In this document: in pieces, positions 6,094 through 44,900 of the stretch | Position numbering within the stretch: position 1 is the first letter of the stretch | Layout of the letters: each line of letters opens with the position of its first letter | Assembly (NCBI RefSeq): GCF_040807025.1 | Contig: NC_090973.1 | Span: 935,107 to 981,852, forward strand | From: Struthio camelus | Lineage: Eukaryota | Direction of reading: 5' to 3' | DNA: 46,746 nt | The notes under the pieces: model-generated | Told to the model about the DNA's origin: nothing | Database searches by the model: none | Seen by the model: only the letters and a program-made list of their open reading frames with translations | Program-made: the position numbers and the translations under genes

Positions 6094-6099
6094 GTACCT

Positions 6100-21170: not shown

Positions 21171-21199
21171 CCCCCGTGACGGCGCCGGCGGGCCGGCAG

Positions 21200-21397
21200 G
21201 GTGGTGCTGGGCCCCGAGCTGGCCCTGCTGGCGCCGGGCGAGCAGCCCACGGTGCTGTCGCTGTCGGGTGGCCGGCCCAAGCGCCCGCACGCCCGCCGCG
21301 CCCTCTGCCTCCTGCTGGGCCCCGACTTCTGCGCCGACCTGGTGGCCATCGAGACGGCCGACCACGCCCGCCTCCAGCTCCAGCTGGCCTACAACTG
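21200..21397 (+). CDS. MVP: MVP coding exon 10 (R)[65 protein letters not shown](W)
   Basis: Acceptor ggccggcag|G completes the Arg codon. Matches human [66 protein letters not shown]. Donor aactg|GTGGGC, phase 2. Confidence 0.9.
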
Positions 21398-21419
21398 GTG
21401 GGCGGGGCTTCAGGGACGG

Positions 21420-22095
21420 GGCGGGGTCTTCTAGGGGAGGTGGAGCCAAGGGAGCAGGGCGGGGTGGGGTGGGGCTTGAGGTGGGGCGGGGCTTGTGGTG
21501 GGTGGGGCTTGGGGGTGGACCCATGGCGGAGCCGGGGGCGGAGCTTATCACGGTGGGGGCTTATCACGGTGGGGGATTGGGGCAGTGGGGCTGGGCCGCC
21601 CCCCCTGGCTGGGGAGCGGGGTGGGCGTGGCTTTACAGGAGGGGCGTGGCTTGGAGGGAGGGGGCGGGGTCTGCATGGGGGGTGGATTTGCTGCAGGGGT
21701 GTGTGGGGGGAGGGGTGGTGCACCAGGGAAGGGGCGTGGTGCAAGGGGGCGGAGCTCCCGCTTGGGGTGCTCGGGGGCGTGGCCAAGGTGATGGGGGCGT
21801 GGCCAAGGCGATGGGGGGCGTGGCCAGGGGAGGGGCTGGGGCTGCGGTTCCTACCAAGGGGCCGAGGCTGGGAGGGGAGGGCGGGAAGGGGGCGTGGCCA
21901 GGTGATGGAGGGGAGGGCGTGGCCTGTCCTTTGGGGGGCGTGGCCTGGCCTTTGGGGGCGTGGCCTGGCGGTGGAGGGGGCGTGGCCGGAGGCTGTGGTT
22001 GCTGCCAAGGGGCCAAGGCTGGTAGAGGGGTGGGAAGGGGGCGTGACCGGGTGGCGGCGGGGGCGTGGCCAAGCGGGGAGGGGGCGTGGCCTGAG
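21420..22095 (+). repeat. GGGGCGTGGCC (Sp/KLF GC-box-like) repeat cluster in MVP intron 10
   Basis: More than 15 copies of ggggcgtggcc(a/t)gg with irregular 20-60-bp spacing. Confidence 0.75.
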
Positions 22096-22115
22096 CGGCC
22101 CCGCCCCCTCCCCAG

Positions 22116-22254
22116 GCACTTTGAGGTGCCGGAGTCGCCGGCGGAGCTGGGGCGGCTCTTCAGCGTCCCCGACTTCGTGGGCGACGCCTGCAAGGCCCTG
22201 GCCTCCCGCGTGCGCGGCGCCGTCGCCGCCGTCTCCTTCGACGACTTCCACAAG
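22116..22254 (+). CDS. MVP: MVP coding exon 11 (W)[46 protein letters not shown]
   Basis: Acceptor ccctccccag|G completes the Trp codon. Matches human [48 protein letters not shown]. Donor caag|GTGGCG. Confidence 0.9.
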
Positions 22255-22259
22255 GTGGC

Positions 22260-24365
22260 GCCCGTCCCGCGTCACCCCGCGTCACCCCGCGTCACCCCGC
22301 GTCCTCCCAGGTCACCCCGTGTCCTCCCGGGTCACCCCGTGTCATCCTGGGTCATCCCGCGTCATCCCACGTCCCCACCTCGTCCTGGGTCACCCCAGGC
22401 CACCCCGTGTCACCCCGTGTCCTCCCGGCTCACCCCGTGTCATCCTGGGTCATCCCGCGTCATCCCGGGTCATCCCGCGTCATCCCACGTCCCCACCTCG
22501 TCCTGGGTCACCCCGTGTCATCCTGGGTCACCCCACGTCATCCCACGTCCCCCACCTCATCCCGGGTCACCCCGTGTCATCCTGGGTCATCCCGCATCAT
22601 CCCACGTCCCCACCTCATCCTGGGTCACCCCAGGCCACCCCGTGTCACCCCGTGTCATCCTGGGTCACGCCGTGTCCTCCCGGCTCACCCCGTGTCATCC
22701 TGGGTCATCCCGCGTCATCCCACATCCCCACCTCGTCCTGGGTCACCCCAGGCCACCCCGTGTCACCCCGTCTCATCCTGGGTCACCCCTTGTCCTCCCG
22801 GCTCACCCCGTGTCATCCTGGGTCATCCCGCATCATCCCATGTCCCCACCTCGTCCTGGGTCACCCCGTGTCCTCCCATGTCACCCCGTGTCCTCCCAGG
22901 TCACCCCATGTCCTCCCGGCTCACCCCGTGTCATCCTGGGTCATCCCGCGTCATCCCACGTCCCCACCTCGTCCTGGGTCACCCCAGGCCACCCCGTGTC
23001 ACCCCGTGTCATCCTGGGTCACCCCGTGTCCTCCCGGTTCACCCCGTGTCACCCCGTGTCATCCTGGGTCATCCTGCGTCATCCCACATCCCCACCTCGT
23101 CCTGGGTCACCCCAGGCCACCCCGTGTCACCCCGTGTCATCCTGGGTCACCCCTTGTCCTCCCGGGTCACCCTGTGTCATCCTGGGTCACCCCACGTCAT
23201 CCCACGTCCCCCACCTCGTCCCGGCTCACCCCAGGCCACCCCGCGTTGTCCCACGTCCTCCTATGTCACTACCTGTCATCCCCGCGTCACCCCCCTGGTG
23301 ACACCTCGCGCCAGCCCACGTCATTCCTGCCCGTCCCCGTGCCCCCGCTGCCCCCCAACGTCCCTCTGTCCTTGTGTCCCCTGAGCTCCCTGTGTGCCCC
23401 ATGTCCCCGACGTCCCTGAGGTTGCCCAATGCCATCTGCAATGTCCTCGATGTCCCCTGATGTCCCCAGTGTCCCCAACACCCCCAATGTTTTCAATAGG
23501 CCCGATGTCCCCTAACGTCCCTGATGTCCCCTAACATCCCCGATGTCCTCAATGCCCCCAGCATCTCCAGTGTTGCTGATGTCCCCAATGTCCCCAGTGT
23601 CCCCAATGCCCCATTTTCAACGGCCCCCATGTCCCGACACCCCCGATGTCCTCAGCGCCCCCAACATCTCCAACGTCCCTGATCTGCTCGATGCCGCCGA
23701 CATCTTCAGGGTCCCCCATGTCCCCTGACATCCCCGATGTCCTCGGCGCCCCCAACATCTCCAACGTCCCTGATCTGCTCGATGCCGCCGACATCTTCAG
23801 GGTCCCCCATGTCCCCTGACATCCCCGATGTCCTCGGCGCCCCCAACATCTCCAACGTCCCTGATCTGCTCGATGCCGCCGACATCTTCAGGGTCCCCCA
23901 TGTCCCGACACCCCCGATGTCCTCAGCGCCCCCAACATCTCCAACGTCCCTGATCTGCTCGATGCCGCCGACATCTTCAGGGTCCCCCATGTCCCCTGAC
24001 ATCCCCGATGTCCTCAGCGCCCCCAACATCTCCAACGTCCCTGATCTGCTCGATGCCGCCGACATCTTCAGGGTCCCCCATGTCCCCTGACATCCCCGAT
24101 GTCCTCGGCGCCCCCAACATCTCCAACGTCCCTGATCTGCTCAATGCCGCCGACATCTTCAGGGTCCCCCATGTCCCCTGACATCCCCGATGTCCTCGGC
24201 GCCCCCAACATCTCCAACGTCCCTGATCTGCTCGATGCCGCCGACATCTTCAGGGTCCCCCATGTCCCCTGACATCCCCGATGTCCTCGGCGCCCCCAAC
24301 ATCTCCAACGTCCCTGATCTGCTCGATGCCGCCATCTTCAGGGTCCCCCATGTCCCCTAACATCC
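22260..24365 (+). repeat. MVP intron 11: gtcaccccgtgtcatcctgggtcatcccgcgtcatcccacgtccccacctcgtcctgg family (22260-23300), then a 91-bp unit with about 9 copies (23400-24365)
   Basis: The 91-bp unit is gtcccctgacatccccgatgtcctcggcgcccccaacatctccaacgtccctgatctgctcgatgccgccgacatcttcagggtcccccat. It recurs at 23720, 23811, 23901, 23991 and 24082. Confidence 0.85.
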
Positions 24366-24447
24366 CTGGCGTCCCCAACACCCCCAGCGCTCCGACCGCG
24401 TCAGCCGCGGTCCCCAACGTGCCGTAACGTCCCCCTGCCGTCCCCAG

Positions 24448-24659
24448 AACTCGAACCGGGTGATCTGCTCGGCCGTGTTCGGCTTCGACGAGGGCGGGCG
24501 CCTGCGCGAGCGCCTCCGCTTCGCCCCCAACGGGCTGGTGGTGACCAGCGTCGACATCCAGAGCGTGGAGCCCGTGGACCAGCGCACGCGCGACGCCCTC
24601 CAGCGCAGCGTCCAGCTCGCCATCGAGATCGCCACCAACTCCCAGGAGGCCGCCGCCAG
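24448..24659 (+). CDS. MVP: MVP coding exon 12 [70 protein letters not shown](R)
   Basis: Acceptor ctgccgtccccag|AAC. Matches human NSARIIRTAVFGF...[44 protein letters not shown]. Donor gccag|GTCCTG, phase 2. Confidence 0.9.
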
Positions 24660-24669
24660 GTCCTGCGTC

Positions 24670-25795
24670 CCCCCCCCCCGTCCCCATGGGTCCCCTCCCA
24701 TGTTGTCCCACGTATACAGTGGTCCCGTGTCCTCATGTATCTCCTCGTGTCCCCCAGGTGTCCCCCAGGTCCTCTGTGTCCCCCATGTCACCTCCATGTC
24801 GCCCAAGGTCCCTCCCATGTTGTCCCGTATCCTCCCGTATCCCCCACCTTGCCCATATCCCGGTGGTCCCGTGTCCTCATGTATCTCCTCATGTCCTCCG
24901 TGTCACCCGTGTCCTCCATGTCCCCCATGTCACCTCCATGTCACCATGGGTCCCTCCCATGTTGTCCCGTATCCTCCCGTATCCCCCACCTTGCCCATAT
25001 CCCGGTGGTCCCGTGTCCTCATGTATCTCCTCGTGTCCCCCAGTATCCCCCGTGTCCCCCATGTCACCTCCATGTCACTCCAGGTCCCTCCCATGTTGTC
25101 CCGTATCCTCCTGTATCCCCCACTTTGCCCATATCCCGGTGGTCCCGTGTCCTCATGTATCTCCTCGTGTCCCCCAGTGTCCTCCATGTCCCCCATGTCA
25201 CCTCCATGTCACCATAGGTCCCTCCCATGTTGTCCCGTATCCTCCCGTATCCCCCACCTTGCCCATATCCTGGTGGTCCCGTGTCCTCATGTATCTCCTC
25301 ATGTCCTCCGTGTCACCCGTGTCCTCCATGTCCCCCATGTCACCTCCATGTCACTCCAGGTCCCTCCCATGTTGTCCCGTATCCTCCTGTATCCCCCACT
25401 TTGCCCATATCCCGGTGGTCCCGTGTCCTCATGTATCTCCTCATGTCCCCCGGTGTCCCCCGGGTCCCCCATGTCACCTCCATGTCACCATGGGTCCCTC
25501 CCATGTTGTCCCGTATCCTCCTGTATCCCCCACCTTGCCCATATCCCGGTGGTCCCGTGTCCTCATGTATCTCCTCATGTCCCCCGGTGTCCCCCGGGTC
25601 CCCCATGTCACCTCCATGTCACCATGGGTCCCTCCCATGTTGTCCTGTATCCTTCTGTATCCCCCACTTTGCCCATATCCCGGTGGTCCCGTGTCCTCAT
25701 GTATCTCCTCGTGTCCCCCCGTGTCCCCCCCATGTCACCATGGGTCCCCAAGGGTCCCTCTTGTGTTGCCCCGTGTCACCCCATACGCTCCGCGT
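24670..25795 (+). repeat. About 136-bp tandem repeat, about 8 copies, starting immediately after the MVP exon 12 donor (intron 12)
   Basis: gtcccgtgtcctcatgtatctcctc recurs at 24723, 25010, 25146, 25276, 25417, 25551 and 25687. Confidence 0.85.
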
Positions 25796-26051
25796 CACCC
25801 ATAGCCCAGCATCCCCGCGTCCTCCCGCGTGTCCTCCTGTCCCACCGTGTCCCCTGGGTGTCCCCGCAGGTCACAACGTGTCCCCACGGGTCCCCCCCCA
25901 GGTTGTCCCATGTCCTCCCACATCCTCCCTGTCCCCCCGTGTCCTCACGCCCCCTCCACGTCCCCCCACGCGCCCCCCCCCCGTGCCCCAGCGCGGGCCT
26001 GGCCTCCCCCCGCCGCCTGCCCCCCGCGTCCCACGTCCCCGCGTCCCCCAG

Positions 26052-26168
26052 GCAGGAGGCGGAGCGGCTGGCGCAGGAGGCCCGCGGCCGCCTCGAGCGC
26101 CAGCGCCTCCTCGACCAGGCCGAGGCCGAGCGGGCGCGCCGGGCGCTGCTCGAGCTCGAGGCCCTCAG
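26052..26168 (+). CDS. MVP: MVP coding exon 13 (R)[38 protein letters not shown](S)
   Basis: Acceptor gcgtcccccag|G. Matches human [39 protein letters not shown]. Donor ctcag|GTGAGC. Confidence 0.9.
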
Positions 26169-26174
26169 GTGAGC

Positions 26175-27410
26175 CCGTCCTCCCAGCATGCCCCGGGGGG
26201 GACCCCTTCCCAACATGCCCTGGGGCCACCCCTTCCCAGCATGCCCTGGGGTCACCCCTTCCCAGCATGCCCTGGGGCCACCCCCGTCCCAGCATGCCCT
26301 GGGGCCACCTCCGTCGCAGCATGCCCTGGGGTCACCCCTTCCCAGCATGCCCCGGGGTCACCCCTTCCCAGCATGCCCTGGGGTCACCCCTTCCCAGCAT
26401 GCCCTGGGGCCACCCCCGTCCCAGCATGCCCTGGGGTCACCCCTTCCCAGCATGCCCTGGGGCCACCCCCGTCCCAGCATGCCCTGGGGTCACCCCTTCC
26501 CAGCATGCCCTGGGGTCACCTCCGTCCCAGCATGCCCTGGGGCCACCACCTTCCCAGCATGCCCTGGGGCCACCTCTGTCCCTAGCATGCCCCAGGGCCA
26601 CCCCCGTCCCAGCATGCCATGGGGCCACCCCCGTCCCAACATGCCCTGGGGTCACCCCTTCCCAGCATGCCCTGGGGTCACCCCTTCCCAGCATGCCCTG
26701 GGGTCACCTCCGACCCAGCATGCCCTGGGGCCACCCCTTCCCAGCATGCCCTGGGGTCACCCCTTCCCAACATGCCCTGGGGCCACCTCTGACCCAGCAT
26801 GCCCTGGGGTCACCCCTTCCCAGCATGCCCTGGGCCCACCCCTTCCCAGCATGCCCTGGGGCCACCTCTGTCCCAGCATGCCCTGGGCCCACCCCTGTCC
26901 CAGCATGCCCCAGGGCCACCCCCGTCCCAGCATGCCCTGGGGTCACCCCTTCCCAGCATGCCCCGGGGGGGGGTCACCACCTTCCCAGCATGCCCCGGGG
27001 TCCCTGCCTTCCCAGCATGCCCTGGGGGGGGCACCCCCTTCCCAGCATGCCCCGGGGGGGTCACCACCTTCCCAGCATGCCCTGGGGGGGGGTCACCACC
27101 TTCCCAGCATGCCCTGGGGTCACCCCTTCCCAGCATGCCCCGGGGGGGGGGTCACCACCTCCCCAGCATGCCCCGGGGGGGGGGGTCACCACCTTCCCAG
27201 CATGCCCCGGGGTCACCACCTTCCCAGCATGCCCCGGGGGGGGGGTCACCACCTTCCCAGCATGCCCCGGGGTCACCACCTTCCCAGCATGCCCCGGGGG
27301 GGGGGGGGTCACCACCTTCCCAGCATGCCCTGGGGTCACCCCTTCCCAGCATGCCCCGGGGGGGGTGTCACCACCTTCCCATCCTGCCCCGGGGCTCCTC
27401 CGCTATCCCA
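26175..27410 (+). repeat. About 30-bp minisatellite cccttcccagcatgccctggggtcac, about 40 copies (MVP intron 13)
   Basis: Near-perfect 30-bp periodicity. The 3' portion accumulates (C)n and (G)n length variation. Confidence 0.9.
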
Positions 27411-27655
27411 TCCTGCCCCGGGGTTGCTCGGGGGGGGCGGGGCCAGGTGGGGCGGTCCCTTGGCGCGGGGGCGTGGCTGGAGGCCGCGAGGGGGAGGGTG
27501 GGCGTGGCTCCAGGGCTCGGGGGCGGGGCCTGGCGGGCGGCAACCCCCCTCCCGCCGCGCCCCCCCCCCCCGGCGGGGCGAACGGAACCCGGAGGCGGGG
27601 GCGTGGCTTTGGGCGGGGGGGCGTGGCCGCGCGCTGACCCCGCCCCCCCCGGCAG

Positions 27656-27782
27656 CGCGGCGGTGGAGAGCGCGGGGGCGGCGCGGGCCGAGGCGCAGGC
27701 GCGGGCCGAGGCCGCCCGCATCGAGGGCGAGGCCGCCATCCTGCAGGCCAAGCTCAAGGCCGAGGCCGCCGCCATCGAGGCG
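27656..27782 (+). CDS. MVP: MVP coding exon 14 (S)[42 protein letters not shown]
   Basis: Acceptor cccccggcag|C. Matches human [42 protein letters not shown]. Donor gcg|GTGCGT at 27782/27783, phase 0. Confidence 0.85.
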
Positions 27783-27789
27783 GTGCGTG

Positions 27790-28560
27790 GGGCCGCCGGG
27801 GGGGGGGCGGAGCCGGCGCAGGTGCCGCGGGGGATGGTGGGAGCGCGCAGGCGCGGTAGGGGCGGTGGGCGGGGGGAGTCCGCGGCGGGGAGCGGCGGCC
27901 GCGCAAGCGCAGTAGGGGAGGGCACCGGAGCGCGCAGGCGCAGTAGCCCGAGGGAGGGATTAAACGCGCAGGCGCAGTAGCCCGAGGGAGAGGCGGGAGC
28001 GCGCAGGCGCAGTAGCCTGAGGTGGGGGGGACAGCGCAGGCGCAGTAGCCCGAGGGAGGGGCGGGAGAGCGCAGGCGCTGTAGCCCGGGGGGCCGCGCAG
28101 GCGCGATTACTCGAGGGAGGGGCGGGCAGGCGCAGTAGCTCGAGAAAGGGGAGAATGCGCATGCGCTGTAGCGGGGGGCTGCGCAGGCGCAGTAGCCTGG
28201 GGAAGGGGGACGGCGCAGGCGCGGTTCAGTGGGGGGGGTGTCGCAAAGGACGCGCAGGCGCAGTACCGCAGGAGGGAGAAGGGGGGAGTGCGCAGGCGCA
28301 GTAGTATCAGTGAGGGGGTGTGGGGGGGGACGGGGGCGCGCAGGCGCAGTAGCCCCGGGGGAGAGGGGAGGAGCGCGCAGGCGCGGTTCGGCGGGAGAGG
28401 GGCGGTGTCGCAGGGGACGCGCAGGCGCAATAGCCGCGGGAAGCGGGGGGGGGGGACAGGGAGCGCGCAGGCGCGGTAGGTCGGGCCGGGGGGGGGGGGG
28501 ACGCGGCGCGCAGGCGCAGTCGGCGCGAAGGGGGCCGGGGGCGCGGCTGACGGCGGCTCC
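27790..28560 (+). repeat. About 60-bp gcgcaggcgcagtagcccgagggaggggcgggag repeat in MVP intron 14, sequence-related to the start of exon 15
   Basis: gcgcaggcgcag recurs about every 60 bp. Exon 15 begins ..gagcgcgcgcaggcgcaggagctg. Confidence 0.8.
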
Positions 28561-28575
28561 GCCCCCGTCGCGCAG

Positions 28576-28764
28576 GAGGCGGAGCTGGCGCGGCTGGAGC
28601 GCGCGCAGGCGCAGGAGCTGCGGGTGCAGCGGGCGCGGGCGGAGGCGGAGGCGGCGCATGCGCAGGCCATGGCCGAGGTGGAGGGCGCGCGCGTGCGCGA
28701 CGTGGCCACCGCCCTCGGCCCCGACGTCATCCGCGACATCGCCCGCGCCGGGCCCGAGCTCCAG
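28576..28764 (+). CDS. MVP: MVP coding exon 15 EAELARLERAQAQELRVQRARAEAEAAHAQAMAEVEGARVRDVATALGPDVIRDIARAGPELQ
   Basis: Acceptor ccgtcgcgcag|GAG. Colinear with human [63 protein letters not shown]. Donor ccag|GTGGGC. Confidence 0.9.
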
Positions 28765-28789
28765 GTGGGCGGGGCCTCCGCGGCGGGAG

Positions 28790-29235
28790 GGGGCGGGGGG
28801 CATCCGCGGCGGGAGGGGGCGGGGGGTGAGCGTTCGGGGGGGGCGGGGGGGCGGGGCCTAGGCGGGAGGCGAATCGAGTCCCCGGCGGGGCCGAAAGGGG
28901 CGGAGTCTATACGGGGTGGGCGGGGCCTCGAGGAGGGGGGCGGGCGCCCAAAGGGGGCGGGGTCCGCCGTGGTGGCGCCAGACGGGGGCGGGGCCCCATT
29001 GGGGTTGGGCGGAGCCTCGAGGGGGGGGGCAAGGCTCGCTTGGGTGGGGGCCTCCGAGTGGGCGTGGCATCAGAAGGGGGCGTGGCTTGTGCTTAGGGGG
29101 CGGGGCCAGGAGCCATGCTCTCTGGGAGGGTGGGGGAGGCCGGTGGGGCAGGACGGGCGGAGGGCGTGGTCTGCGAGGGGGGCGGGGCCTGAGGGGGGCG
29201 TGTCAAGAGGGGGCGGGGCCGGAGGGGGCGGGGCC
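28790..29235 (+). repeat. GC-box satellite gggggcggggcctgaggggg in MVP intron 15 (same family as 39500-40900)
   Basis: Multiple GGGGCGGGGCCTGAGGGG units, also with CGTGTC variants. Confidence 0.8.
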
Positions 29236-29255
29236 TGAGGGGGCGTGTCCCGCAG

Positions 29256-29393
29256 GTGAAGCTGCTGCAGGGCCTGGGGCTGCAGTCGACGCTCATCACC
29301 GACGGCGCCGCCCCCCTCAACCTCTTCGCCACCGCCCGGGGGCTGCTGGGGCTGGTCCCGCCCCCCGGCCCCGCCCCCGGCCCCGCCCCCTGA
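29256..29393 (+). CDS. MVP: MVP terminal coding exon [45 protein letters not shown] (TGA at 29391-29393)
   Basis: Acceptor tgtcccgcag|GTG. Matches human [33 protein letters not shown]. The stop is followed 22 nt later by AATAAA. Confidence 0.9.
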
Positions 29394-29414
29394 GCGGCCC
29401 CGCCCCCCGAGCGC

Positions 29415-29420
29415 AATAAA
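29415..29420 (+). terminator. MVP: MVP polyadenylation signal AATAAA (3' UTR only about 40-50 nt)
   Basis: Canonical AATAAA lies 22 nt after the TGA. A GT-rich stretch follows at 29440-29465. Confidence 0.75.
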
Positions 29421-29424
29421 GGCG

Positions 29425-30010
29425 GCCGTGACGTCATGGCGGTGGTGTCCTAGCTTTGTGGGGGGGGGGGGGAAGGGGCTGTGATGTCACCACGCTGGGG
29501 ACACGGCAGCTGTGATGTCATAGTCCCGGGGGGCGGGGCTTGTGCACTCAGTGGGTGGGCTGGCAGGGCTGTGATGTCACGGGGGGGGTGGGCGGGCTGC
29601 TGGCTATGATGTCACAGCTCCGGGGGCCCGAGAGGGTTGGGGCGGGACGCTCGGGTGTGACATCATTGGGCTGGGGGGGTGGGGCTGTGATGTCACAGAG
29701 CGGAGCGATGTCAGGCTGGGGAGTGATGTCGTCAGGCCCAGGTGTGACGTCATCGGGCCGGGGCGTGGCGTCGTGGGGCCGGGGTGTGACGTCATCGGGC
29801 TAGGTGTGACGTCATCCGGTCCGGGCGCGATGCCATCGAGGTGCAGCAGCGTGCCGTGGGGCTGGGGCGTGACATCATCGGGCCGAGTGTGACATCAGTG
29901 GGGCCAGGTGTGATGTCATCGAGCCAGAGCGTGAGCTCATGGCGCCTGGGCATGACGTTATTGGGCCCGGATGTGACCTAGTCGGGCCGGGCGTGATGTC
30001 ACGGGGCCGA
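29425..30010. promoter_or_regulatory. Tandem array of about 22 units of a 22-bp repeat GGGYGTGAYGTCAYCGGGCC carrying CRE palindromes (TGACGTCA) or their CpG-decayed variants
   Basis: Perfect TGACGTCA at 29429-29436, 29745-29752, 29787-29794 and 29807-29814. The other units carry TGATGTCA, TGACATCA or TGACCTCA. Confidence 0.7.
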
Positions 30011-31990: not shown

Positions 31991-32125
31991 TGCTCCTGAG
32001 GATCCCGCCACACCCCCCCCCCCCACCCCAGGAGCTCCTCGTACCTCCTTTTCTCCCTCCCAAGCGTCGAGCACCCCCGGGCGGCCCAGCGAGCGGGCGG
32101 CAGCACCCCGGGGTGCCGGGCGGCG

Positions 32126-32386
32126 TCAGGGGGGCGCCGGGGGCCGGAAGAGGCGCCAGGCGCCGCGGCAGATGAGGCCGAACCAGTAGAGCTGGGGGGC
32201 GAGGAGGGCGGCGGCGGCGGCGTTGTAGGCGGCCGGCAGCGCCGCCGGCACCCGCAGCAGCGGCAGCCCCGCGTGGCGCCCGTAGGCCCAGTACAGGTAG
32301 GGGAACAGCAGCACCCGGCACCCGAAGAAGGTCACCAGCATGGCCAGGCCGTTGAGCTTGTGCAGCGCCGTGTGCTGCCGCTTGTA
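32126..32386 (-). CDS. TLCD3B: TLCD3B terminal coding exon [86 protein letters not shown] (stop = plus TCA at 32126-32128)
   Basis: Minus-strand acceptor ccccggcag|TAC. Matches human [82 protein letters not shown]. Confidence 0.85.
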   Translation of the reverse strand, partial: [86 protein letters not shown]

Positions 32387-32399
32387 CTGCCGGGGCGAC

Positions 32400-35197
<2,798 letters not shown>

Positions 35198-35417
35198 GGC
35201 GGCCACGGGGAAGCAGACGAGCACCATGGCGGCGTGGTGGAGCACCATGAGCAGGTCCTTGCGGAGGTAGGCGGCGGTGGCGGCCCGCAGCGAGGGCGGT
35301 GGCCCGGCCTCGTGGCCCTTGACGCGACCCCGGTGCCAGTGGCAGAGGAACATGGCGTAGACGTCGTAGATGAAGTAGGGCACCGCGAACTCCGGGTAGG
35401 CGCCCGCCAGCCAGTGC
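35198..35417 (-). CDS. TLCD3B: TLCD3B coding exon 3 (Q)HWLAGAYPEFAVPYFIYDVYAMFLCHWHRGRVKGHEAGPPPSLRAATAAYLRKDLLMVLHHAAMVLVCFPVAA
   Basis: Minus-strand acceptor ccggcgcag|G. Matches human HWLSSAYTQFAVPYFIYDIYAMFLCHWHKHQVKGH...YLHKEFLMVLHHAAMVLVCFPLSVV, including the TLC-domain HH motif. Donor gccgcc|GTGAGTGAGG, phase 0. Confidence 0.85.
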
Positions 35418-35419
35418 CT

Positions 35420-37010
35420 GCGCCGGGAGAGGGACCCAGGTGTCCGGGGAGGGACCCAGGTGTCCGGGGAGGGACCCAGGCGTCCGGGAGGGACCCAGGC
35501 ATCCGGGAAGGACCCAGGAGTCCGGGCAGGGACCCAGGTGTCCGGGCAGGACTGAGGCATCCGCATCCACTACCCTGGTTTTACTCAACCCATTGGAGCT
35601 CTCCAAAGGGGCCCAGGCATCCGGGCGCTGCCCCTTGCCCCCCACCCCCACCCCAAGGGGCCCAGATGTCCGGGCGCTGCCCCTTCCCCCCCACCCCCAC
35701 CCCAAGGGGCCCAGGCGTCCAGGCGCGCCGGGCTAATCCCCCACCCCCACCCCGCCCGCCAAGGGCAAAGCCTAGAGAGAGGGCCCAGGCGTCCGGCTCT
35801 CCCCTCCCCCAGCCCCAAGGGACCCAGGCGTCCGGGCGCTGCCCTCCTCCGCCCCCCCCCCCCCCGCTTCGCTCGGAAGGGCCCAGGCGTCCAGGCGCTG
35901 CCCTCCTCCCTCCCCCCCCAACCTCGGGCTCAGAAGGGCCCAGGCGTCCGGGCGCGCCAGGCTAATCCCCATCTGCTCAGTGGCTAATCCCCGCCAAGGG
36001 CAGAGCCGAGAGGGCCCAGGCGTCCGGGCGCTGCCTCTCCCCCCCCCAACCTCGGGCTCAGAAGGGCCCAGGCATCCGGGTGCTGCCCCTCCCCCACCCT
36101 GCTCAGAAAAGGGCCCAGGCGTCCGGGCGCTGTCCAGTGCTGAAGGGCGGCCGGCGCCGGGAAGGGAGGGGACGGGGACCCTGTGGGTGCCCTTGGGGGT
36201 CCCCAGGGGCCATGTGGGTGCTGTGGGGTGGGTGTAGGGGCACCGTGGGGCAGGGTGGCACCCACGGGTCACGGTGGCACCCACAGTTTGGGGTAGCACC
36301 TATGGGTCATGGTGGCACCCACGAGTTGTGGTGACCCCCATGGGCCACGGTGGCACCCATGGGCCATGGTGACACCCACAGTTTGGGGTGACCCCCATGG
36401 GTCACGGTGGCACCCATGAGTCATGGTGGCACCTATGGGTCATGGTGGCACCCACGAGTTGTGGTGACCCCCATGGACCACGGTGGCACCCATGGGCCAT
36501 GGTGACACCCACAGTTTGGGGTGACCCCCATGGGTCACGGTGGCACCCATGAGTCATGGTGGCACCTATGGGTCATGGTGGCACCCACGAGTTGTGGTGA
36601 TCCCCATGGGTCACGGTGGCGCCCATGGGCCATGGTGGCACCTATGGGTCATGGTGGCACCCACGAGTTGTGGTGATCCCCATGGGTCACGGTGGCACCC
36701 ATGGGCCATGGCGATACCCACAGTTTGGGGTGGCACCTATGGGTCACGGTGGCACCCATGGGCCATGGTGGCACCCACAGTTCGAGGTGACATCCATGCG
36801 TCATGGTGGCACCCATGGCTTGTGGTGGCATCCATGGGCCACGGTGGCACCCGTTGGTCATGATGCCACCCACGGGGCATGGTGGCACCCACAGGCTATG
36901 GTGACACCCACGGGTTGTGGTGGCACCTATGAGTCACAGTGGCACCTATGGGCCATGGTGACACCCACGGGTCGTGGTGGCACCCATGGGTCATGATGGC
37001 ACCCACGGGT
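35420..37010. repeat. TLCD3B intron 2: gggacccaggtgtccgggga / gggcccaggcgtccgggcgctgcc repeats (35420-36130), then a 19-20-bp ggtggcacccatgggtcac minisatellite (36180-37010)
   Basis: Direct tandem recurrence. These share the GGCCCAGGCGTCCGGG core with the arrays at 32400-33425 and 44900-46746. Confidence 0.85.
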
Positions 37011-37032
37011 GCCCAGGCCAGGCCGTACTCAC

Positions 37033-37116
37033 TGGTCATCGATGACATGGTGGCAGGAGCTGGAGATGATGTATCCGGCCGTGGTGGCCATGATGGCCTG
37101 CACCGAGGACACCAGC
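37033..37116 (-). CDS. TLCD3B: TLCD3B coding exon 2 (R)LVSSVQAIMATTAGYIISSSCHHVIDD(Q)
   Basis: Minus-strand acceptor ccccccag|G and donor gacca|GTGAGTACGG. Matches human LVSSVQAIMASTAGYIVSTSCKHIIDDQ. Confidence 0.8.
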
Positions 37117-37129
37117 CTGGGGGGGGGGG

Positions 37130-39350
37130 GGACACGGGGACGTCAAGGGACATCGAGGGACGGGGACGTTGGGGACATGAGGGGACGGGGCCCTGAGCGG
37201 GTGGCAGCCACCCCTGCGGCCACCCCCCGCTGCCACTTGTCCCCAGCCCTGTCCCCAAGCTGCTGCCATCCCTGTCCCCACGGTCCTCGCGGTGTCCCCG
37301 TCCCCACGTTGTCTCCACAATGTCCCCGGCTGTCTCCATGTTGTCCCCATGCCATCCCTGTCCCTGTCCCCTCGCTGTCCCCATTCCCCCGTGTCCCCAT
37401 CCCTGTCACTGTCCCCTCATTGTCCTTGTTCCCTCATTGTCCCCGTCCCCACAGTGTCCCCAGCCCTGTCCCCGTCCCCTCATTGTCCCCACACCGTCCC
37501 CCTCCCCAGTGTCCCCATCCCGGTCGCTGTCCCGTCACCGTCCCCACGACGTCCCCGTCCCCATAGTGTCCCCAACCCCTCATTGTCCCCATCCCCATCC
37601 CCTCATTGTCCTCTCGTTGTCTCCGTCCCCACGGTGCCCCTGTCCCTGTCCCCTTGTTGTCCCCACGCTGTCCCCGTCCCCTTGTTGTTTCTGTCCCCTC
37701 CTTGTCCCCTTGTTGTCCCCATGCCGTGTGTGTCCCTGTCCCCGTCCCCTCAGTGTCCCCTTGTTGTCCCCGTCCCCTCACTGTCCCCCCAGTGTCCTCT
37801 CCTTGTCCCCATCCCCTCCCCATCCCACTGTTGTCCCTGTCCCCTCAGTGTCCCTGCCCTCAGTGTCCCCCCACCCCCTCAGTGTCCCCTGTGTCCCCTC
37901 CCCATCTCCTCAGTGTCCCCACACCGTCCCCGTCTCCTCAGTGTCCCCTCAGTGTCCCCACCCTCTCCCCCTGCCCTCATTGTCCCCCCTGTCCCCTCAG
38001 TGTCCCCACACTGTCCCCATCCCCTCAGTCTCCCCTCACTGTCCCCATCCCCTCCCCGCCCTCCCCGTCCCCTCAGTGTCCCCTCAATGTCCTCACATTG
38101 TCCCCATCACCCTGTTGCCCCCTCAGTGTCCCCTCAGTGTCCGCCCGTGTCCCCATCCCTCCACCCCCCCGTTGTCCCCTCAGTGTCCCCACACTGTCCT
38201 CATCTCCCATCCCCTCCCCGTCCCCCCAGTGTCCCCATCCCTTCCCCCATCCCCACCCCGTCCCCTCAGGGTCCCCACACCGTCCCTGTCCCCTCAGTGT
38301 CCTCTCAGTGTCCCCATCCCCCTGTTGTCCCCTCAGCGTCCCCCCCATGCCCTCAGTGTCCCCACACTGTCCCCGTCCCCCCTCCCCTCCCCGCAGTGTC
38401 CCCTCAGTGTCCCCCTCCCCCGTCCCATCAGTGTCCCCTCAGTGTCCCCTCAGTGTCCCCTCAGTGTCCCCATCCCCTCCCCCATCCCCACACTGTTCCC
38501 ATCCCCCCCCAGTGTCCCCACACTGTCCCCGTCCCCTCAGTGTCCCAATCGCCCCCTCAGTGTCCCAATCGCCCCGTTGTCCCCTCAGTGTCCCCATCCC
38601 CCCTCAGTGTCCCCTCAGTGTCCCCATCCCCTCCCCCATCCCCACACTGTCCCCATCCCCCCCCAGTGTCCCCACACTGTCCTCGTCCCCTCAGTGACCC
38701 AATCGCCCCGTTGTCCCCTCAGTGTCCCCCTCCCCCGTCCCCTCAGTGTCCCCTCAGTGTCCCCTCAGTCCCCCCATCCCCTCCCCCGTCCCCTCAGTCC
38801 CCCCCTCCCCCCGTTGTCCCCTCAGTGTCCCCATCCCCTCCCCCCTCCCCTCAGTGTCCCCTCAGTGTCCCCATCCCCTCCCCCCCTCAGTGTCCCCTCA
38901 GTGTCCCCCTCCCCCCTCCCCTCAGTGTCCCCTCAGTGTCCCCCATCCCCTCCCCCCTCCCCTCAGTGTCCCCTCAGTGTCCCCATCCCCTCCCCCGTCC
39001 CCTCAGTGTCCCCCCATCCCCTCAGTGTCCCCCTCCCCCATCCCCTCAGTGTCCCCTCAGTGTCCCCATCCCCTCCCCCCCTCAGTGTCCCCTCAGTGTC
39101 CCCATCCCCTCCCCCGTCCCCTCAGTGTCCCCTCAGTGTCCCCCTCCCCCTCCCCCCATCCCCTCAGTGTCCCCTCAGTGTCCCCCTCCCCCTCCCCCCA
39201 TCCCCTCAGTGTCCCCTCAGTGTCCCCCTCCCCCCTCCCCTCAGTGTCCCCTCAGTGTCCCCTCAGTGTCCCCCTCCCCCATCCCCTCAGTGTCCCCCTC
39301 CCCCCCTCCCCTCAGTGCCCCCCCGTCCCCTCCTCGCCCCCCCCCCACCC
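37130..39350. repeat. C-rich 24-30-bp minisatellite (tgtccccatcccctcagtgtcccctcag family), about 2.2 kb, filling TLCD3B intron 1
   Basis: Continuous recurrence of cctcagtgtcccc. The plus strand is Pro/Ser-codon-like, which explains the long artefactual ORFs here. Confidence 0.85.
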
Positions 39351-39356
39351 CGGTAC

Positions 39357-39493
39357 CGGGCGGCGACGATGACGGCGTCGGGCTCGGGCCAGCGCAGCCC
39401 CGGCAGCCGCCGCAGCCCGGCCCGGGCCGCCAGGAAGAGCCCGGGGAAGAAGACGAAGCCGCCGGCCAGCAGGGCACCCGGGGGGGCCGCCAT
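39357..39493 (-). CDS. TLCD3B: TLC domain-containing protein 3B (FAM57B), coding exon 1: MAAPPGALLAGGFVFFPGLFLAARAGLRRLPGLRWPEPDAVIVAA(R)
   Basis: Minus-strand ATG (plus CAT at 39491-39493). Matches the human TLCD3B N-terminus M..VAGGVVFPGLFLLSKNTLQRLPQLRWEEADAVIVSAR. Donor cccg|GTACCG on the minus strand, phase 2. Confidence 0.8.
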
Positions 39494-39499
39494 GAGCGG

Positions 39500-40900
39500 G
39501 GGGGGGCGGGGGGCGGGGGGGGGCACAGGGACCTGCCCGGCCCGGCCCGGCCCGCCGGCCCCGCCGGGAGCGACGCTGGGGGCGGGGCCTGAGGGGGGCG
39601 GGGCAACAGAGGGGGCGGGGTCTGAGGGGGGCACAGGGACCTGCCCGGCCCGCCGGCCCCGCCGGGAGCGACGCTGGGGGCGGGGCCTGAGGGGGGCGGG
39701 GCTTGAGGGGGCGGGGTCTGAGGGGGGGCACAGGGACCTGCCCGGCCCGGCCCGGCCCGCCGGCCCCGCCGGGAGCGACGCTGGGGGCGGGGCCTGAGGG
39801 GGGCGGGGCTTGAGGGGGCGGGGTCTGAGGGGGGCACAGGGACCTGCCCGGCCCGGCCCGGCCCGCCGGCCCCGCCGGGAGCGACGCTGGGGGCGGGGCC
39901 TGAGGGGGGCGGGGTCTGAGGGGGCGGGGTCTGAGGAGGGGCACAGGGACCTGCCCGGCCCGCCGGCCCCGCCGGGAGCGATGGTGGGGGCGGGGCCTGA
40001 GGGGGGCGGGGCCTGAGGGGGGCGGGGTCTGAGGGGGGTGGGGTCTGAGGGGGGCACAGGGACCTGCCCGGCTCGGCCCGGCCCGCCGGCCCCGCCGGGA
40101 GCGACGCTGGGGGCGGGGCCTGAGGGGGGCGGGGTCTGAAGGGGGCGGGGTCTGAGGGGGGGCACAGGGACCTGCCCGGCCCGCCGGCCCCGCCGGGAGC
40201 GACGCTGGGGGCGGGGCCTGAGGGGGGCGGGGTCTGAGGGGGCGGGGTCTGAGGGGGGCACAGGGACCTGCCCGGCCCGCCGGCCCCGCCGGGAGCGACG
40301 CTGGGGGCGGGGCCTGAGGGGGGCGGGGCCTGAGGGGGCGGGGCCTGAGGGGGGGGGCACAGGGACCTGCCCGGCCCGCCGGCCCCGCCGGGAGCGATGG
40401 TGGGGGCGGGGCCTGAGGGGGGTGGGGCCTGAGGGGGGGGCACAGGGACCTGCCCGGCCCGCCGACCCCGCCGGGAGCGATGCTGGGGGCGGGGCCTGAG
40501 GGGGGCGGGGCCTGAGGGGGGGCACAGGGACCTGCCCGGCCCGGCCCGGCCCGCCGGGAGCGACGCTGGGGGCGGGGCCTGAGGGGGGCGGGGTCTGAAG
40601 GGGGCGGGGTCTGAAGGGGGGCACAGGGACCTGCCCGGCCCGGCTCCGCCCTGCCGGAAGCAATGCTGGGGGGGGTCTGAATGGGGGCGGGGCCTGAGGG
40701 GGGCGGAGTCACAGGGGGATGCAGGGACCTGCCTGGCCCTGCCGGGAGTGATGCTGGCGGCGGGGCCATGGGGCGGGGTCACAGGGGGTGGGGCCTAAGG
40801 GGGCGGGGGGCTACCTGGCCCGGCCCGGCCCTGCCTTGGGGGTGACCCTGGGGGCGGGGCCTAAAGGGGGCGGGGCCTAAAGGGGGCGGGGCGTGAGGGC
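39500..40900. repeat. About 105-bp tandem repeat, about 13 copies, rich in GC-boxes (GGGGCGGGGCCTGAGGGG), immediately upstream of the TLCD3B ATG (5' UTR or proximal promoter)
   Basis: cacagggacctgcccgg recurs at 39525, 39633, 39730, 39837, 39944, 40055, 40164, 40260, 40360, 40443, 40524, 40623 and 40716. Confidence 0.9.
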
Positions 40901-41197: not shown

Positions 41198-41390
41198 ATT
41201 TGCATATATTTGCATATCACTTGTAGGCCCCTCCCCACTGGGAGGGGGCAGGTTGGGGGGAGGAGCTGAGCCAGACCCTCTGCGTGCATGCAGCCAGCAC
41301 GCCATCGCACCTAGACGTATTTGCACATATTTGCATAAATTTGCAAACATTTGCATACATTTGTGTACATTTGCCTACATTTGTGCGCGC
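41198..41390. promoter_or_regulatory. 10-bp-phased array of octamer motifs ATTTGCAT (POU/Oct site) and single-base variants
   Basis: Perfect ATTTGCAT at 41198, 41208, 41329 and 41349. Variants atttgcac, atttgcaa, atttgtgt, atttgcct and atttgtgc sit at exact 10-bp spacing through 41319-41386. Another ATTTGCAT is at 41944. Confidence 0.6.
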
Positions 41391-41399
41391 CCCTCCCCC

Positions 41400-41850
41400 T
41401 CGAGGGCGCCGCGCGTTGTCCGAGCAACGGCCGCCGCCGAGCCGGGTGGCGCTCGGCGCATGCGCCGCCCGCCACCCGCCAGCGCCCCTCCCTATTGGCC
41501 GCGGCCGGCAGCCAATGGGAGGCGGCGGGACGCGGCGCGTTGCCAGGCAGAGTCTCGGCGCGCCGCGCTGAAAGGGCGGCTCCGATTGGCGCCGGGGCCA
41601 GCGCCTGAGGCGAAGGCGCCACCGCGCCGCGCGCCTCGCTGATTGGCCCCGCCGGGAGTGTCCCCACTCTGTGGGCAACGCCCCTCTCCACCCCCGGCCA
41701 ATAGGAAGGCGCGAGGCGGCGTTTCCATGGCACCCGCACCGCCTCCCGCTTCCGGGTGGCTACCTCAGCACCGCCTCGCTGGAGCGCGCGCCGGGTGGGG
41801 GGGGGGAGGTGTTGCCGCAGCAACCGCGCATGCGCGTCAGAGGGTCATTA
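41400..41850. promoter_or_regulatory. CpG-island promoter, probably bidirectional (TLCD3B on the minus side). It has five CCAAT/ATTGG boxes and two GCGCATGCGC (NRF1-like) palindromes.
   Basis: ATTGG at 41494, 41585 and 41642. CCAAT at 41512 and 41697. gcgcatgcgc at 41457-41466 and 41826-41835. Very high CpG density and no TATA box. Confidence 0.6.
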
Positions 41851-42075
41851 GTATTCATGAAGGGCACCGCGACTACATGAATATTTATGAGGAAGGCGGG
41901 GCCTTGCTGAGTGGCGGGGTGGGCGGGGCTCCCGGACAGGGTGATTTGCATACAACAGCCCTTCATGCGGAAGGGTGGGTGCAGGGCTCATGAATATTGA
42001 TGAGGACATGTCATAAATTATTAATGAGGGAGATGCAGCTCTTCTCCCACGTGACTGTGGGAAATAGCCCCTCCC

Positions 42076-42477
42076 ATTGCCATGGAAACTGAGGCCTATT
42101 CGGTTGCCATGGAGACTGTCAGCCCAGGGGGGGGAGGAGCTGTCCTGTCGCCATGGAGATTGTCAGTCAGCTCGGGGGGGGGGTTCTACCCTGTCACCAT
42201 GGCGACTGTTACAGTGGTTGGGGGGGTGTCCTACTGCCATCACCATGGAAACCACAACCTTCCTGGTTGCCATGGAAACTGTCAGTCTGCTGGGGGGGCA
42301 CTACCCTGTCGCCGTGGCGACTGTCACAGTGGTCTGAGGCCTACCCCCGTTGCCATGGAAACCGGGACCTACCCCCCCCCACCATCGCCACACACATTGG
42401 GGAGGGCTCCCCCCACCTACCTGGTTGCCATGGCAACCACCACCGTGCACCTACCCCCCCCAGGTCGCCACGGCGAC
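42076..42477. promoter_or_regulatory. Array of about 10 RFX-type X-box palindromes (GTYGCCATGGMRAC), including a perfect GTTGCCATGGCAAC at 42424-42437
   Basis: gttgccatggaaac at 42078, 42267 and 42351. gttgccatggagac at 42104. gtcgccatggagat at 42147. gtcaccatggcgac at 42193. gtcgccgtggcgac at 42308. gtcgccacggcgac at 42464. Confidence 0.55.
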
Positions 42478-42612
42478 CGCCTCCCCCCCCCCTCAAAACC
42501 AGGCCCTCGCGGCCTGGCCCGTTTCCACGGTTACCCGGAGCCTGCCGGCAGTTTGGGGGGGGCCAGGCCCCTCCCCGGCGCCCAGGCCAGGGGCCGGCGG
42601 GGGCGGGGGGGG

Positions 42613-42732
42613 CTATTTTTAGCCCCCGAAAAGGCCAGGGGTCGGCGGAAAGGTCGCCGGGGGGGGGGGAGGCCCTAGATAAGGGGCGGCGCTGGGGGGC
42701 CGGGGGGCAGCGGGACCCGGCGCTGCCCCACG
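42613..42732 (+). promoter_or_regulatory. Candidate muscle-type alternative promoter and non-coding first exon. It has a MEF2/TATA-like CTATTTTTAG (42613-42622) and a GATA motif AGATAA (42677-42682). The exon would end at donor cacg|GTGAGT (42732/42733).
   Basis: The only A/T-rich MEF2 consensus in a GC-rich context. It is followed about 110 nt later by a perfect GTGAGT donor. Compatible with an ALDOA-like pM exon. Confidence 0.3.
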
Positions 42733-42779: not shown

Positions 42780-44100
42780 CCCGTGCCCTAAATAACCCCC
42801 CTGACACCCCAAATACCCCCCTGACACCCCCCTGGGCAGCTCTATAACCCCCCCCAGCACCCTAAATACCCCCCCGGCACCCCCATATCCCCCTCAACAC
42901 CCCAAATACCCCCCTGACACCCCAAATACCCCCCTGACACCCCCCTGGGCAGCTCTATACCCCCCCAGCACCCTAAATACCCCCCCTGGCACCCCCATAT
43001 CCCCCTCAACACCCCAAATACCCCCCTGGCACCCCAAATGCCCCCCTGGCACCCCCCCCGGCAGCCCTATACCCCCCCTGGCACCCCAAATGCCCCCCCG
43101 GCACCTCTCTCAGCACCCCCAAATACCCCCCCCGACACCCCCCTGGGCAGTCCTATACCCCCCTGGCACCCCAAATACCCCCCTGACACCCCCCCCGGCA
43201 CCCCAAATACCCTCCAGGGCTCCCCCAAATGCCCACCCAGGATCACATATACCCCCCTAGACCCCCCGCAAATACTCCGTGGGACCCCCTAAATACCCAC
43301 CCAGGACCCTATATGTCCTCCTAGACCCCCCAAATACTCCCTCAGCACCCCAAATACCCTCCCTGACCCCCCCAAATATCCCCTGAGACCCCCAAATTCC
43401 CCTCTGGAATGCCAACTACCACCCAGGACCCCATATACTCCCCTAGACCCCCTCAAATAACCCCCTGTGACCCCCCAAATACCCACCCAGGACCCCAAAT
43501 ACTCACCCAGGACCCCATACGCTCCTGTAGACCCCCCCCAAATAACCCCCAGGACCCCCCCAAATACCCACCCAGGACCCCAAATATCCCCAAATAACCC
43601 CCCTAGACCCCCCAAATTCCCCCCCAGGACCCCAAATACACCCCTAGACCCCCCCCAAATAACCCCAGGACCCCCAAATCCCCCCCAGGACCCCAAATAC
43701 CCATCCAGGACCCCAAATACCCCCTTAGACCCCCCCAAATAACCCCCAGGACCCCCCAAATACCCACCGAGGACCCCAAATGCCCCCCAGACCTCCCAAA
43801 TAACCCCTGGGACCCCCAAATACCCACCCAGGACCCCCTATTACCCCCAGACTCCCCCCAAATAACCCCCGAGACCCCCAAATCCCCCCCAGGACCCCAA
43901 ATACCCACCTAGGACCCCCCTAAACCCCCAAATAACCCCTGGGGCCCCCAAATCCCCCCCAGGACCCCAAATACCCACCTAGGACCCCCCTTAAACCCCC
44001 CCAAATAACCCCTGGGACCCCCAAATCCCCCCCAGGACCCCAAATACCCACCTAGGACCCCCCTAAACCCCCAAATAACCCCCGGGACCCCCCCCAATTC
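42780..44100. repeat. 20-30-bp minisatellite ccccaaatacccccctgacacc / cccaggaccccaaatacccac
   Basis: Continuous recurrence of ccaaata(c/a)cc. Confidence 0.85.
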
Positions 44101-44143
44101 CCCCCCGGGACCCCAATCCCCCCCGTCCCCCCCCCCCGCGCGG

Positions 44144-44266
44144 TGACTCAGCGCTCGGCGGCGCGGCCCCTTTAAGCGCCCCCCTCGCCCCTCCCGCCGC
44201 TTCCTCTGACGTCACAGCCCCCCCCCCGCACCGCACGCGCGCGCCGCAGCCTCGGCGCGAGACCAG
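44144..44266 (+). promoter_or_regulatory. Candidate promoter and non-coding first exon. It has AP-1 TGACTCA (44144-44150), TTTAAG (44171-44176) and CRE TGACGTCA (44207-44214). The exon would end at donor accag|GTGGGG (44266/44267).
   Basis: A unique, non-repetitive GC-rich island between two satellite arrays, with canonical motifs and a donor. No ORF is present. Confidence 0.3.
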
Positions 44267-44289: not shown

Positions 44290-44900
44290 CAGGTTTTGGG
44301 GCGAAAAAGTCGGGTTTTGGGGCCAAACGTGTGGAGATTGGGGGAGGGGGTGGGTTTTGGGGCCAAACGTGTGGAGATTGGGGGCTGGGGGCGGGTTTTG
44401 GGGCTAAACGTGTGGAGATTGGGGGCTGGGGGGTGGATTTTGGGGCTAAACGTGTGGAGATTGGGGGCTGGGGGCGGGTTTTGGGGCTAAAAGTGTGGAG
44501 ATTGGGGGAGGTGGGTGGGTTTTGGGGCAGAAAATGTAGATTTTGGGCTTGGGGGAAGACTTGAGGGCAGATTTGGGGGCTGGGGGCAGATTTGGGGCTG
44601 AAAAGGTAGCTTTAGGGGGCTGGGGGGCAAATAGGGGACTGTGGGGGCAGATTTTGGGGCTGGAAAGAGATTTTGGGGTGGAGGAGCAGATTTTTGGGGT
44701 GGGGGAGCAGATTTTGGGGCTGTGGGGGCACATTTTGGGATGAAGGAGCAGATTTTTGGGGCTGTGGGGGTAGATTTTGGGGTGCAGGAGCAGATTTTTG
44801 GGGCTAGCATGGCAGATTTTGGGGTGGGGGGGCAGATTTAGGGGGGGAAGAGCAGGTTTTGGGGCTGGAAAGGCAGATTTTGGGGCTGTGGGGAGCAGAT
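44290..44900. repeat. About 60-bp gggttttggggccaaacgtgtggagattgggggctggggg repeat (about 4 copies), then about 40-bp gcagattttggggctgtggggg repeats
   Basis: Direct tandem recurrence. Confidence 0.85.

Follow-up and report, generated by a model that had tools for sequence, protein, structure and literature searches.

A degenerate array of RFX-type X-boxes, probably amplified in situ, in the TLCD3B-ALDOA intergenic region of a bird

The locus and its genes

The window, meaning the whole 46,746-bp stretch of DNA that was analysed, has a base composition of 60-80% G+C and carries tandem repeats throughout (552 TRF rows). Pfam identifies shoulder-domain exons of the major vault protein (MVP) near 22.1 and 24.5 kb on the + strand, and the window is therefore eukaryotic chromosomal DNA with introns. 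On the opposite strand lies TLCD3B (FAM57B), with five exons at 39493-39357 and near 37.1, 35.3, 33.5 and 32.3 kb that join into a 265-aa TLC-domain protein with 85-92% identity to bird TLCD3B/FAM57B (best E 2e-145); exon 1 occupies 39357-39493, with the ATG at 39493. This match identifies the DNA as that of a bird, and the composition of the window suggests a microchromosome. MVP (19900-30000) and TLCD3B (32100-39500) are tail-to-tail neighbors, here as in the turtle (L005). At human 16p11.2, several genes lie between the two. Intron 3 of TLCD3B (33800-35200, gene on the - strand) harbors a 155-bp tandem repeat that contains copies of the 3' end of exon 3 ('MVLVCFPVAAV' plus the donor), which appear in tblastn as many pseudo-exon fragments.

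In crane and falcon, TLCD3B stands head-to-head with a class-I aldolase gene whose exons are 85-95% identical to ALDOA and whose relatives carry the source name aldolase A. The coding exons of ALDOA fall past the 3' end of the window (in the other birds they come after the second promoter described below), so the link of the window to ALDOA rests on synteny and on conserved promoter blocks.

The region upstream of TLCD3B is built of successive motif modules. Between the TLCD3B ATG and the CpG island, TRF reports 99-bp tandem repeats of GC boxes (GGGGCGGGG; 39495-40900), which multiply a GC-box tract that is shorter in crane and falcon, and tandem octamers on the + strand (41198-41383), with two copies of ATTTGCATAT at 41198-41217 and 6.5 copies of ATTTGCATAC at 41319-41383. 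The CpG island (41390-41840; CpG o/e 1.03) contains two GCGCATGCGC palindromes, CCAAT boxes and the X-box sites A-D, and is probably the shared TLCD3B/distal ALDOA promoter. A cluster of POU-type motifs follows at 41846-42030 (+), immediately 5' of the array, with three to four copies of ATGAATATTNATGAGG and one of ATTTGCAT. The cluster is conserved in crane (L001 9130-9010, - strand), falcon (L002 9590-9480, - strand), parrot (L008 1120-1160) and turtle (L005 7460-7100, - strand), and its ATGAATATTNATGAGG palindromes, with their TAATGAG ends, resemble Brn-3/MORE sites.

The X-box array

Measured from the TLCD3B ATG, the array begins 2.6 kb upstream, on the divergent side, and it does lie where the first-pass annotation of this DNA had placed it, between a CpG-island promoter and downstream first exons, which are non-coding. 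It is made up of 12 RFX-type 14-mers (U1-U12; 42076-42534) that occur in both orientations, are centred on CCATGG or CCRYGG and are separated by spacers of 13-43 bp. From the left, U1 (ATTGCCATGGAAAC) starts at 42076, U2 (GTTGCCATGGAGAC) at 42103, U3 (GTCGCCATGGAGAT) at 42147, U4 (GTCACCATGGCGAC) at 42193, U5 (ATCACCATGGAAAC) at 42239 and U6 (GTTGCCATGGAAAC) at 42266. They are followed by U7 (GTCGCCGTGGCGAC) at 42308, U8 at 42349, with the same letters as U6 (GTTGCCATGGAAAC), the degenerate U9 (ATCGCCACACACAT) at 42384, U10 at 42424, U11 (GTCGCCACGGCGAC) at 42464 and U12 (GTTTCCACGGTTAC) at 42521, slightly beyond the range originally given for the array. The sole perfect palindrome is U10 (42424-42437; GTTGCCATGGCAAC), exactly at the place claimed for it; the CCAC that comes after it is likewise found at the E1 site of parrot, crane and falcon, described below. 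Another sequence quoted in the first-pass annotation, gtcgccatggagac, is not present as such, the real sequences being GTTGCCATGGAGAC and GTCGCCATGGAGAT. Start-to-start spacings from U1 to U12 are 27, 44, 46, 46, 27, 42, 41, 35, 40, 40 and 57 bp; the earlier figure of about 40-60 bp was roughly right, and the measured range is 27-57 bp.

The proposed cluster of about ten palindromic RFX-like 14-mers is borne out by the counts. Allowing up to three mismatches, GTTGCCATGGCAAC has 10 matches in the 46,746-bp window, all within 757 bp (41721-42477) and eight of them in the array, whereas 100 dinucleotide shuffles averaged 1.94 matches and never exceeded 5. The strong half-site GTTGCC/GGCAAC is concentrated in the same way, with 8 of its 22 window copies in 41400-42540 where 0.54 would be expected (binomial p 3e-8). 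As the array copies are diverged duplicates, these statistics show clustering and not tenfold independent selection. The sites had also been said to fit the consensus GTNRCC-N(0-3)-RGYAAC. The assignment to the RFX/EF-C X-box stands, but inside the array the strict consensus is matched by U10 only. GTNRCC can be read on both strands at four sites (U4, U7, U10 and U11), a further five have a single good half, and the three decayed copies U1, U5 and U9 have no good half-site. The half-site architecture of an RFX X-box is found in the array as a whole and not in each copy.

Relationships among the copies are still traceable. The U1-U2 pair (42076-42116, +) is paralogous to U5-U6 at an offset of 163 bp (72% identity over 64 nt), and U3, U4 and U7 form a family of ~45-bp units with 60-81% identity at offsets of 46 and 115 bp. 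G-runs lie in the left half of the array and C-runs in the right half, with inverted-repeat matches between the halves, which means that the units occur in both orientations. No consistent head-to-tail period was found, and TRF at score 30 makes no call over the array because spacing and orientation are irregular (27-57 bp, two orientations). The array is an old, rearranged duplication block and not a clean tandem array.

Conserved X-box sites in other birds

The orthologous promoter was compared in crane (L001), falcon (L002) and parrot (L008), three birds that all belong to Neoaves; swan (L003, L006), chicken (L004) and a passerine (L007) were left out, their sequences either not reaching the promoter or having no X-box. 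A global MAFFT alignment of the four species was mis-registered in its left third, and local alignments were used for sites A, B, C and E1. All four birds (window, crane, falcon and parrot) are collinear over this intergenic region, and their landmarks follow a common order: GC boxes, octamers, site A, the GCGCATGCGC palindrome, CCAAT boxes and sites B and C in the 5' part, followed in the 3' part by the POU-type ATGAATATTNATGAGG cluster, the E pair, a MEF2-like element, a TATA box, the first exon and the second promoter.

Crane, falcon and parrot all keep site A, an isolated X-box (GTTGTCCGAGCAAC; 41415-41428), as GTCKCYACGGYAAC, and site C (GTTTCCATGGCACC; 41721-41734) as GTTGCCRTGGCGAC. Site B (41539-41552, +), with the sequence GTTGCCAGGCAGAG, is a half X-box that has conserved counterparts in crane, parrot and turtle. 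Site D (GTTGCCGCAGCAAC; 41811-41824) adjoins the NRF1-like GCGCATGCGC and was found, beyond the window, in crane only. CCAAT boxes stand upstream of the array among sites A-C. For sites A, B, C and E1 together, 34 of 56 columns (61%) are invariant in the X-box cores and 34 of 160 (21%) in the ±18-bp flanks (Fisher p 1e-7), a comparison that is ascertainment-biased because the sites were picked by motif match and the alignments centred on them. The X-box core is the best-conserved part of each of these local alignment blocks.

The E position holds two X-boxes 36 bp apart in the crane, GTTGCCATGGAAAC and GTTGCCATGGCGGC, one X-box and a degenerate second in the falcon, and one perfect GTTGCCATGGCAAC and then the palindrome GTCGCTATAGCGAC in the parrot. 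It is the U5-U6 pair of the window (42239-42279, +; 27 bp apart) that aligns to crane E1-E2 and to falcon E1 and its degenerate E2, and the alignment takes in the spacer CCACAACCTTCC. U5-U6 is probably the ancestral seed of the array; on this alignment, the ancestral state would be a pair that was amplified to 11-12 sites in the lineage of the window. Because the flanks are collinear and an X-box pair is already present at the orthologous position, the array appears to have grown in situ and not to have been inserted. What is kept at the orthologous locus of crane, falcon and parrot is the seed sites; the multimer is not, with 1-2 copies there and 11-12 in the window, a copy-number difference between species of the kind seen in minisatellites.

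At the turtle locus (L005), octamer, CCAAT, NRF1-like and POU-like modules and site B are present, and no X-box array was found. Directly after the POU-like cluster, and divergent from TLCD3B, the turtle has a small gene (5808-8461) whose Cys-rich 239-aa product matches no Pfam family and for which the bird intervals showed no counterpart. It occupies the place of the X-box pair and the M-like ALDOA promoter of birds.

The promoters downstream of the array

Two promoters with non-coding first exons follow the array. The first is an M-like ALDOA promoter and exon at 42613-42732 (+), with a MEF2-like element (CTATTTTTAG) at 42613, a TATA-like element (TAGATAAGG) at 42676 and the donor GTGAGT at 42733. 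The corresponding elements are CTATTTTTGGC and TATATAAGG in crane and falcon and CTATTTTGGGC and TATATAAAGG in parrot, and in crane and falcon CTATTTTTGGC is a MEF2-like element that overlaps a TTGGC NF1 half-site. The block is conserved in all four birds, in which the first exon ends with an identical CCACG/GTGAGT donor (window 42732/42733). These are the sequence features of an ALDOA M-type promoter, and muscle-type use would be predicted. The second, H-like promoter and first exon (44143-44266, +) contains TGACTCA, CCCTTTAAG and TGACGTCA and has its donor GT at 44267; the other three birds, crane, falcon and parrot, preserve this block, with the donor CAG/GTGGGG. In falcon (L002 8230-8200, - strand) and parrot (L008 1690-1750), a GTTGCC half-site abuts the TATA-like CCCTTTAAG of this promoter (GTTGCCCCTTTAAG), an arrangement absent from the window and from crane.

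In the window, crane, falcon and parrot, the intron between the two non-coding exons is filled with CACCCCAAAT-type repeats. All four birds have a CACCCCAAATACCCCCC minisatellite between the exons (window 42786-44116) and GCAGATTTTGGGGTGAAAA after the second (44311-44900), and minisatellite families seem to have kept their positions in orthologous introns for long periods.

The promoters of mammalian ALDOA stand in the order N-M-H. The bird region resembles the mammalian one in having a CpG-island region, a TATA promoter with a MEF2-like element and a GC-rich AP-1/CRE promoter, and in that both first exons are non-coding, a likeness of promoter layout and not of aligned mammalian sequence. To our knowledge, no X-box has been described in the mammalian ALDOA M promoter, and a text search of the literature found no description of a regulatory link between RFX and ALDOA. 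[quoted passage not shown]

Origin of the array

Taken together, the array is best read as a locally amplified, degenerate block of RFX-type X-boxes derived from an ancestral pair near the M-like ALDOA promoter, an explanation that we regard as reasonably probable. By the comparison with the other birds, it would be a lineage-specific, degenerate, two-orientation amplification of conserved RFX-type sites and not a conserved multimer. In the divergent TLCD3B-ALDOA intergenic region of a bird microchromosome, an X-box pair a few hundred bp upstream of the TATA-box M-like promoter would have given rise to 11-12 palindromes. The seeds would be among four conserved X-box positions in this region (A, B, C and the E pair; a fifth, D, is shared with crane only) and would most likely be bound by RFX1-3 dimers. 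The extra copies may have come from slippage or unequal exchange, a process that would also account for the multiplied GC boxes and octamers and for the minisatellites that fill the introns, and at most they would raise local RFX occupancy quantitatively. The analysis shows the identity of the motif, its clustering, the gene context, the orthology, the conservation of the seeds and the difference in copy number between species; RFX occupancy, the effect on transcription and the neutral origin of the extra copies are what we infer from these comparisons.

The whole intergenic region has grown. It measures 3241 bp in the window, 1754 in crane and 1288 in falcon, and over the same three it holds 50, 33 and 16 GC boxes, counted as GGGCGG in the window, 8, 4 and 3 octamers and 10, 4 and 3 X-boxes. 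Every neighboring motif module has been multiplied too, which argues for repeat-prone mutation rather than selection for extra copies. The tandem multiplication of GC boxes and octamers runs parallel to the X-box expansion.

Alternatively, the extra X-boxes may have been selected, forming a homotypic RFX cluster that boosts or gates ALDOA or TLCD3B as an enhancer or a boundary. Promoter VNTRs that change activity through the number of transcription factor sites are known (MNS16A, for example), most copies of the array keep at least one intact half-site, and between the U1-U2 and U5-U6 paralogues the cores match at 25 of 28 positions and the non-core sequence at 21 of 36. However, the U4 and U7 units match in the core (12/14) no better than in the flanks (31/39), and core-over-spacer conservation among paralogous copies is equivocal. 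Three copies have decayed, the multiplication of all the other motif modules points to a mutational cause, and 1-2 copies suffice in three other birds. Neither does a boundary function find its motif: the CTCF core CCASYAGRKGGCR occurs nowhere in the 3.2-kb intergenic region, the array included, and a CTCF-type insulator was rejected, which leaves the insulator-like element envisaged in the first-pass annotation unsupported. Selection for the additional copies thus seems unlikely, although it keeps some weight, and the multimer probably has little function beyond that of the ancestral pair.

The candidate binding factor

The perfect palindrome GTTGCCATGGCAAC is the HT-SELEX core of RFX and its classic palindromic consensus, and half-sites are functional too (PMC5449588, PMC3414849). 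By its letters, the array motif is a canonical RFX/EF-C X-box, for which RFX occupancy would be predicted. X-boxes of the RFX, EF-C and MDBP systems are found in HBV enhancer I, polyomavirus and CMV enhancers, MHC class II and ciliary genes and the ALMS1 promoters. The array shares with them the 14-bp inverted repeat of GTNRCC half-sites, a perfect copy identical to the published palindromic consensus, CpG/TpG variants that mirror the m5C-for-T rule, and a promoter-proximal position beside Sp1 and CCAAT sites. It differs in number, known cellular X-boxes being single or paired whereas the array has 11-12 predicted sites in 460 bp, and in its target, a glycolytic gene and not a ciliary or immune one. 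The S-X-X2-Y module of MHC class II promoters was not found in the array, which has one ATTGG (42396) and no CRE.

It is also conceivable, though rather doubtful, that the sites are bound by another factor (YY1 through GCCAT/ATGGCG, NFI through TGGCA, or another palindrome binder), or that nothing binds and the conservation has another cause. The array does contain nine GCCAT/ATGGC cores and seven TGCCA/TGGCA half-sites, and the human M promoter uses NF1 and MEF2. Against this, neither the extended YY1 motif CGCCATNTT nor a full NFI site (TTGGCN5GCCAA) occurs in the array, and a YY1 or NFI array was rejected. Moreover, the positions conserved across species are those of the RFX half-sites (G1, T2, C5, C6 and the mirror positions), and they are conserved also in sites A and B, which lack the CCATGG core; this favors RFX over YY1 or NFI.

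Three other kinds of explanation were considered and rejected: coding sequence, as ORFs over the array have no Pfam match; RNA, as no Rfam family was found anywhere in the window; and a herpesvirus-like enhancer (TAATGARAT-like elements and octamers in GC-rich repeats), as MVP exons with introns and TLCD3B mark a cellular bird locus.

The variation among half-sites has a bearing on how RFX proteins might read the copies. MDBP is RFX1, and the literature reports that m5C substitutes for T in MDBP sites. At half-site positions 3-4, a count by eye over 24 half-sites gave TG in 6, CG in 7 and CA in 2, and the CpG-type copies are U3, the right half of U4, U7, U9 and U11. The CpG/TpG alternation noticed at first is real as far as GTTGCC, GTCGCC and GTCACC are concerned, but GGAAAC and GGCGAC do not differ by a single CpG transition. 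CpG o/e is 0.41 in the array and 1.03 in the adjoining island, a depletion that fits methylation-driven decay of CpG among the copies. Since RFX1 is MDBP and reads m5C like T, the CpG-type copies could be methylation-dependent sites. On this basis TpG-type copies (GTTGCC...) would bind RFX whatever their methylation state, and CpG-type copies (GTCGCC...GGCGAC) would bind RFX1/MDBP only if methylated.

A far-reaching extension of this idea, which we consider very unlikely, would make the array a methylation-graded RFX1/MDBP 'rheostat' and the multiplication of modules a compensatory adaptation for ALDOA. Binding would be constitutive at the TpG copies and would require methylation at the CpG copies, and the multiplied GC boxes, octamers and X-boxes would keep the highly expressed ALDOA active, or steer promoter choice, on a bird dot chromosome that is rich in GC, laden with repeats and possibly heavily methylated.

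Comparable arrays

A species-wide satellite, or a mobile-element fragment, that happened to have an X-box-like core and came to lie here by chance is a highly improbable source of the array: the window is saturated with minisatellites and X-box-bearing ones exist elsewhere (in a parrot intron, and as 18- and 30-bp arrays in unrelated metagenome contigs), but the array unit has no further copy in the remaining 46 kb of the 46.7-kb window, both flanks are collinear with other birds, and the orthologous X-box pair aligns to U5-U6 including the spacer.

The parrot case is a 68-bp minisatellite in an ALDOA intron (L008 8689-9098), with seven copies of GTTGCCATGGGAAC within ATGGGGA-type repeats. This X-box-like array is unrelated to the promoter array, and it indicates that X-box-like arrays can arise by chance in repeat-rich loci. 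A scan of metagenomes for the E1-E2 signature returned 46 contigs with paired X-boxes (L009-L054), none of them avian. Several, in AT-richer, eukaryote-like DNA, have 18-bp or 30-bp tandem arrays of near-perfect X-boxes (for example L054 920-1400, L011 843-945 and L037 3578-3704), and X-box minisatellites seem to recur in other organisms. Within the window, a 20-bp intronic minisatellite after an MVP exon (GGGGGCAACTGGGACCYTG; 14641-14810) contains six chance GGCAAC half-sites and no palindromes.

Arrays of binding sites are familiar from viral and cellular DNA. In the family of repeats at EBV oriP, which holds EBNA1 sites, viral palindromic arrays are near-identical and functionally required. 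The array resembles oriP in that dyad-symmetric sites for a dimeric DNA-binding protein, here a predicted one, follow one another in a regular series; unlike oriP, it is cellular, decayed and lineage-specific. A cellular parallel is MNS16A at TERT, a promoter minisatellite (VNTR) with GATA-1 sites (PMC5438627). As in promoter VNTRs of this type, a transcription factor site near a promoter has been multiplied by local duplication and copy number differs between lineages, but here TRF makes no call, the copies being too diverged and too irregular, and the units run in both orientations.

Implications

The array is a homotypic cluster of transcription factor sites made by local duplication, a fairly ordinary case that touches no long-standing open question. 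It is a natural example of how, on a repeat-prone microchromosome, local duplication has raised the number of such sites about six-fold; should RFX not bind, it would be one more minisatellite. With this comparison, the control region shared by TLCD3B and ALDOA in birds gains conserved RFX-type sites that had gone unremarked. If RFX does bind, the mixture of CpG and TpG variants could serve for an in vivo test of the MDBP rule, and birds would offer a natural series of 1, 2 and ~11 copies in which the number of homotypic sites can be set against promoter output.
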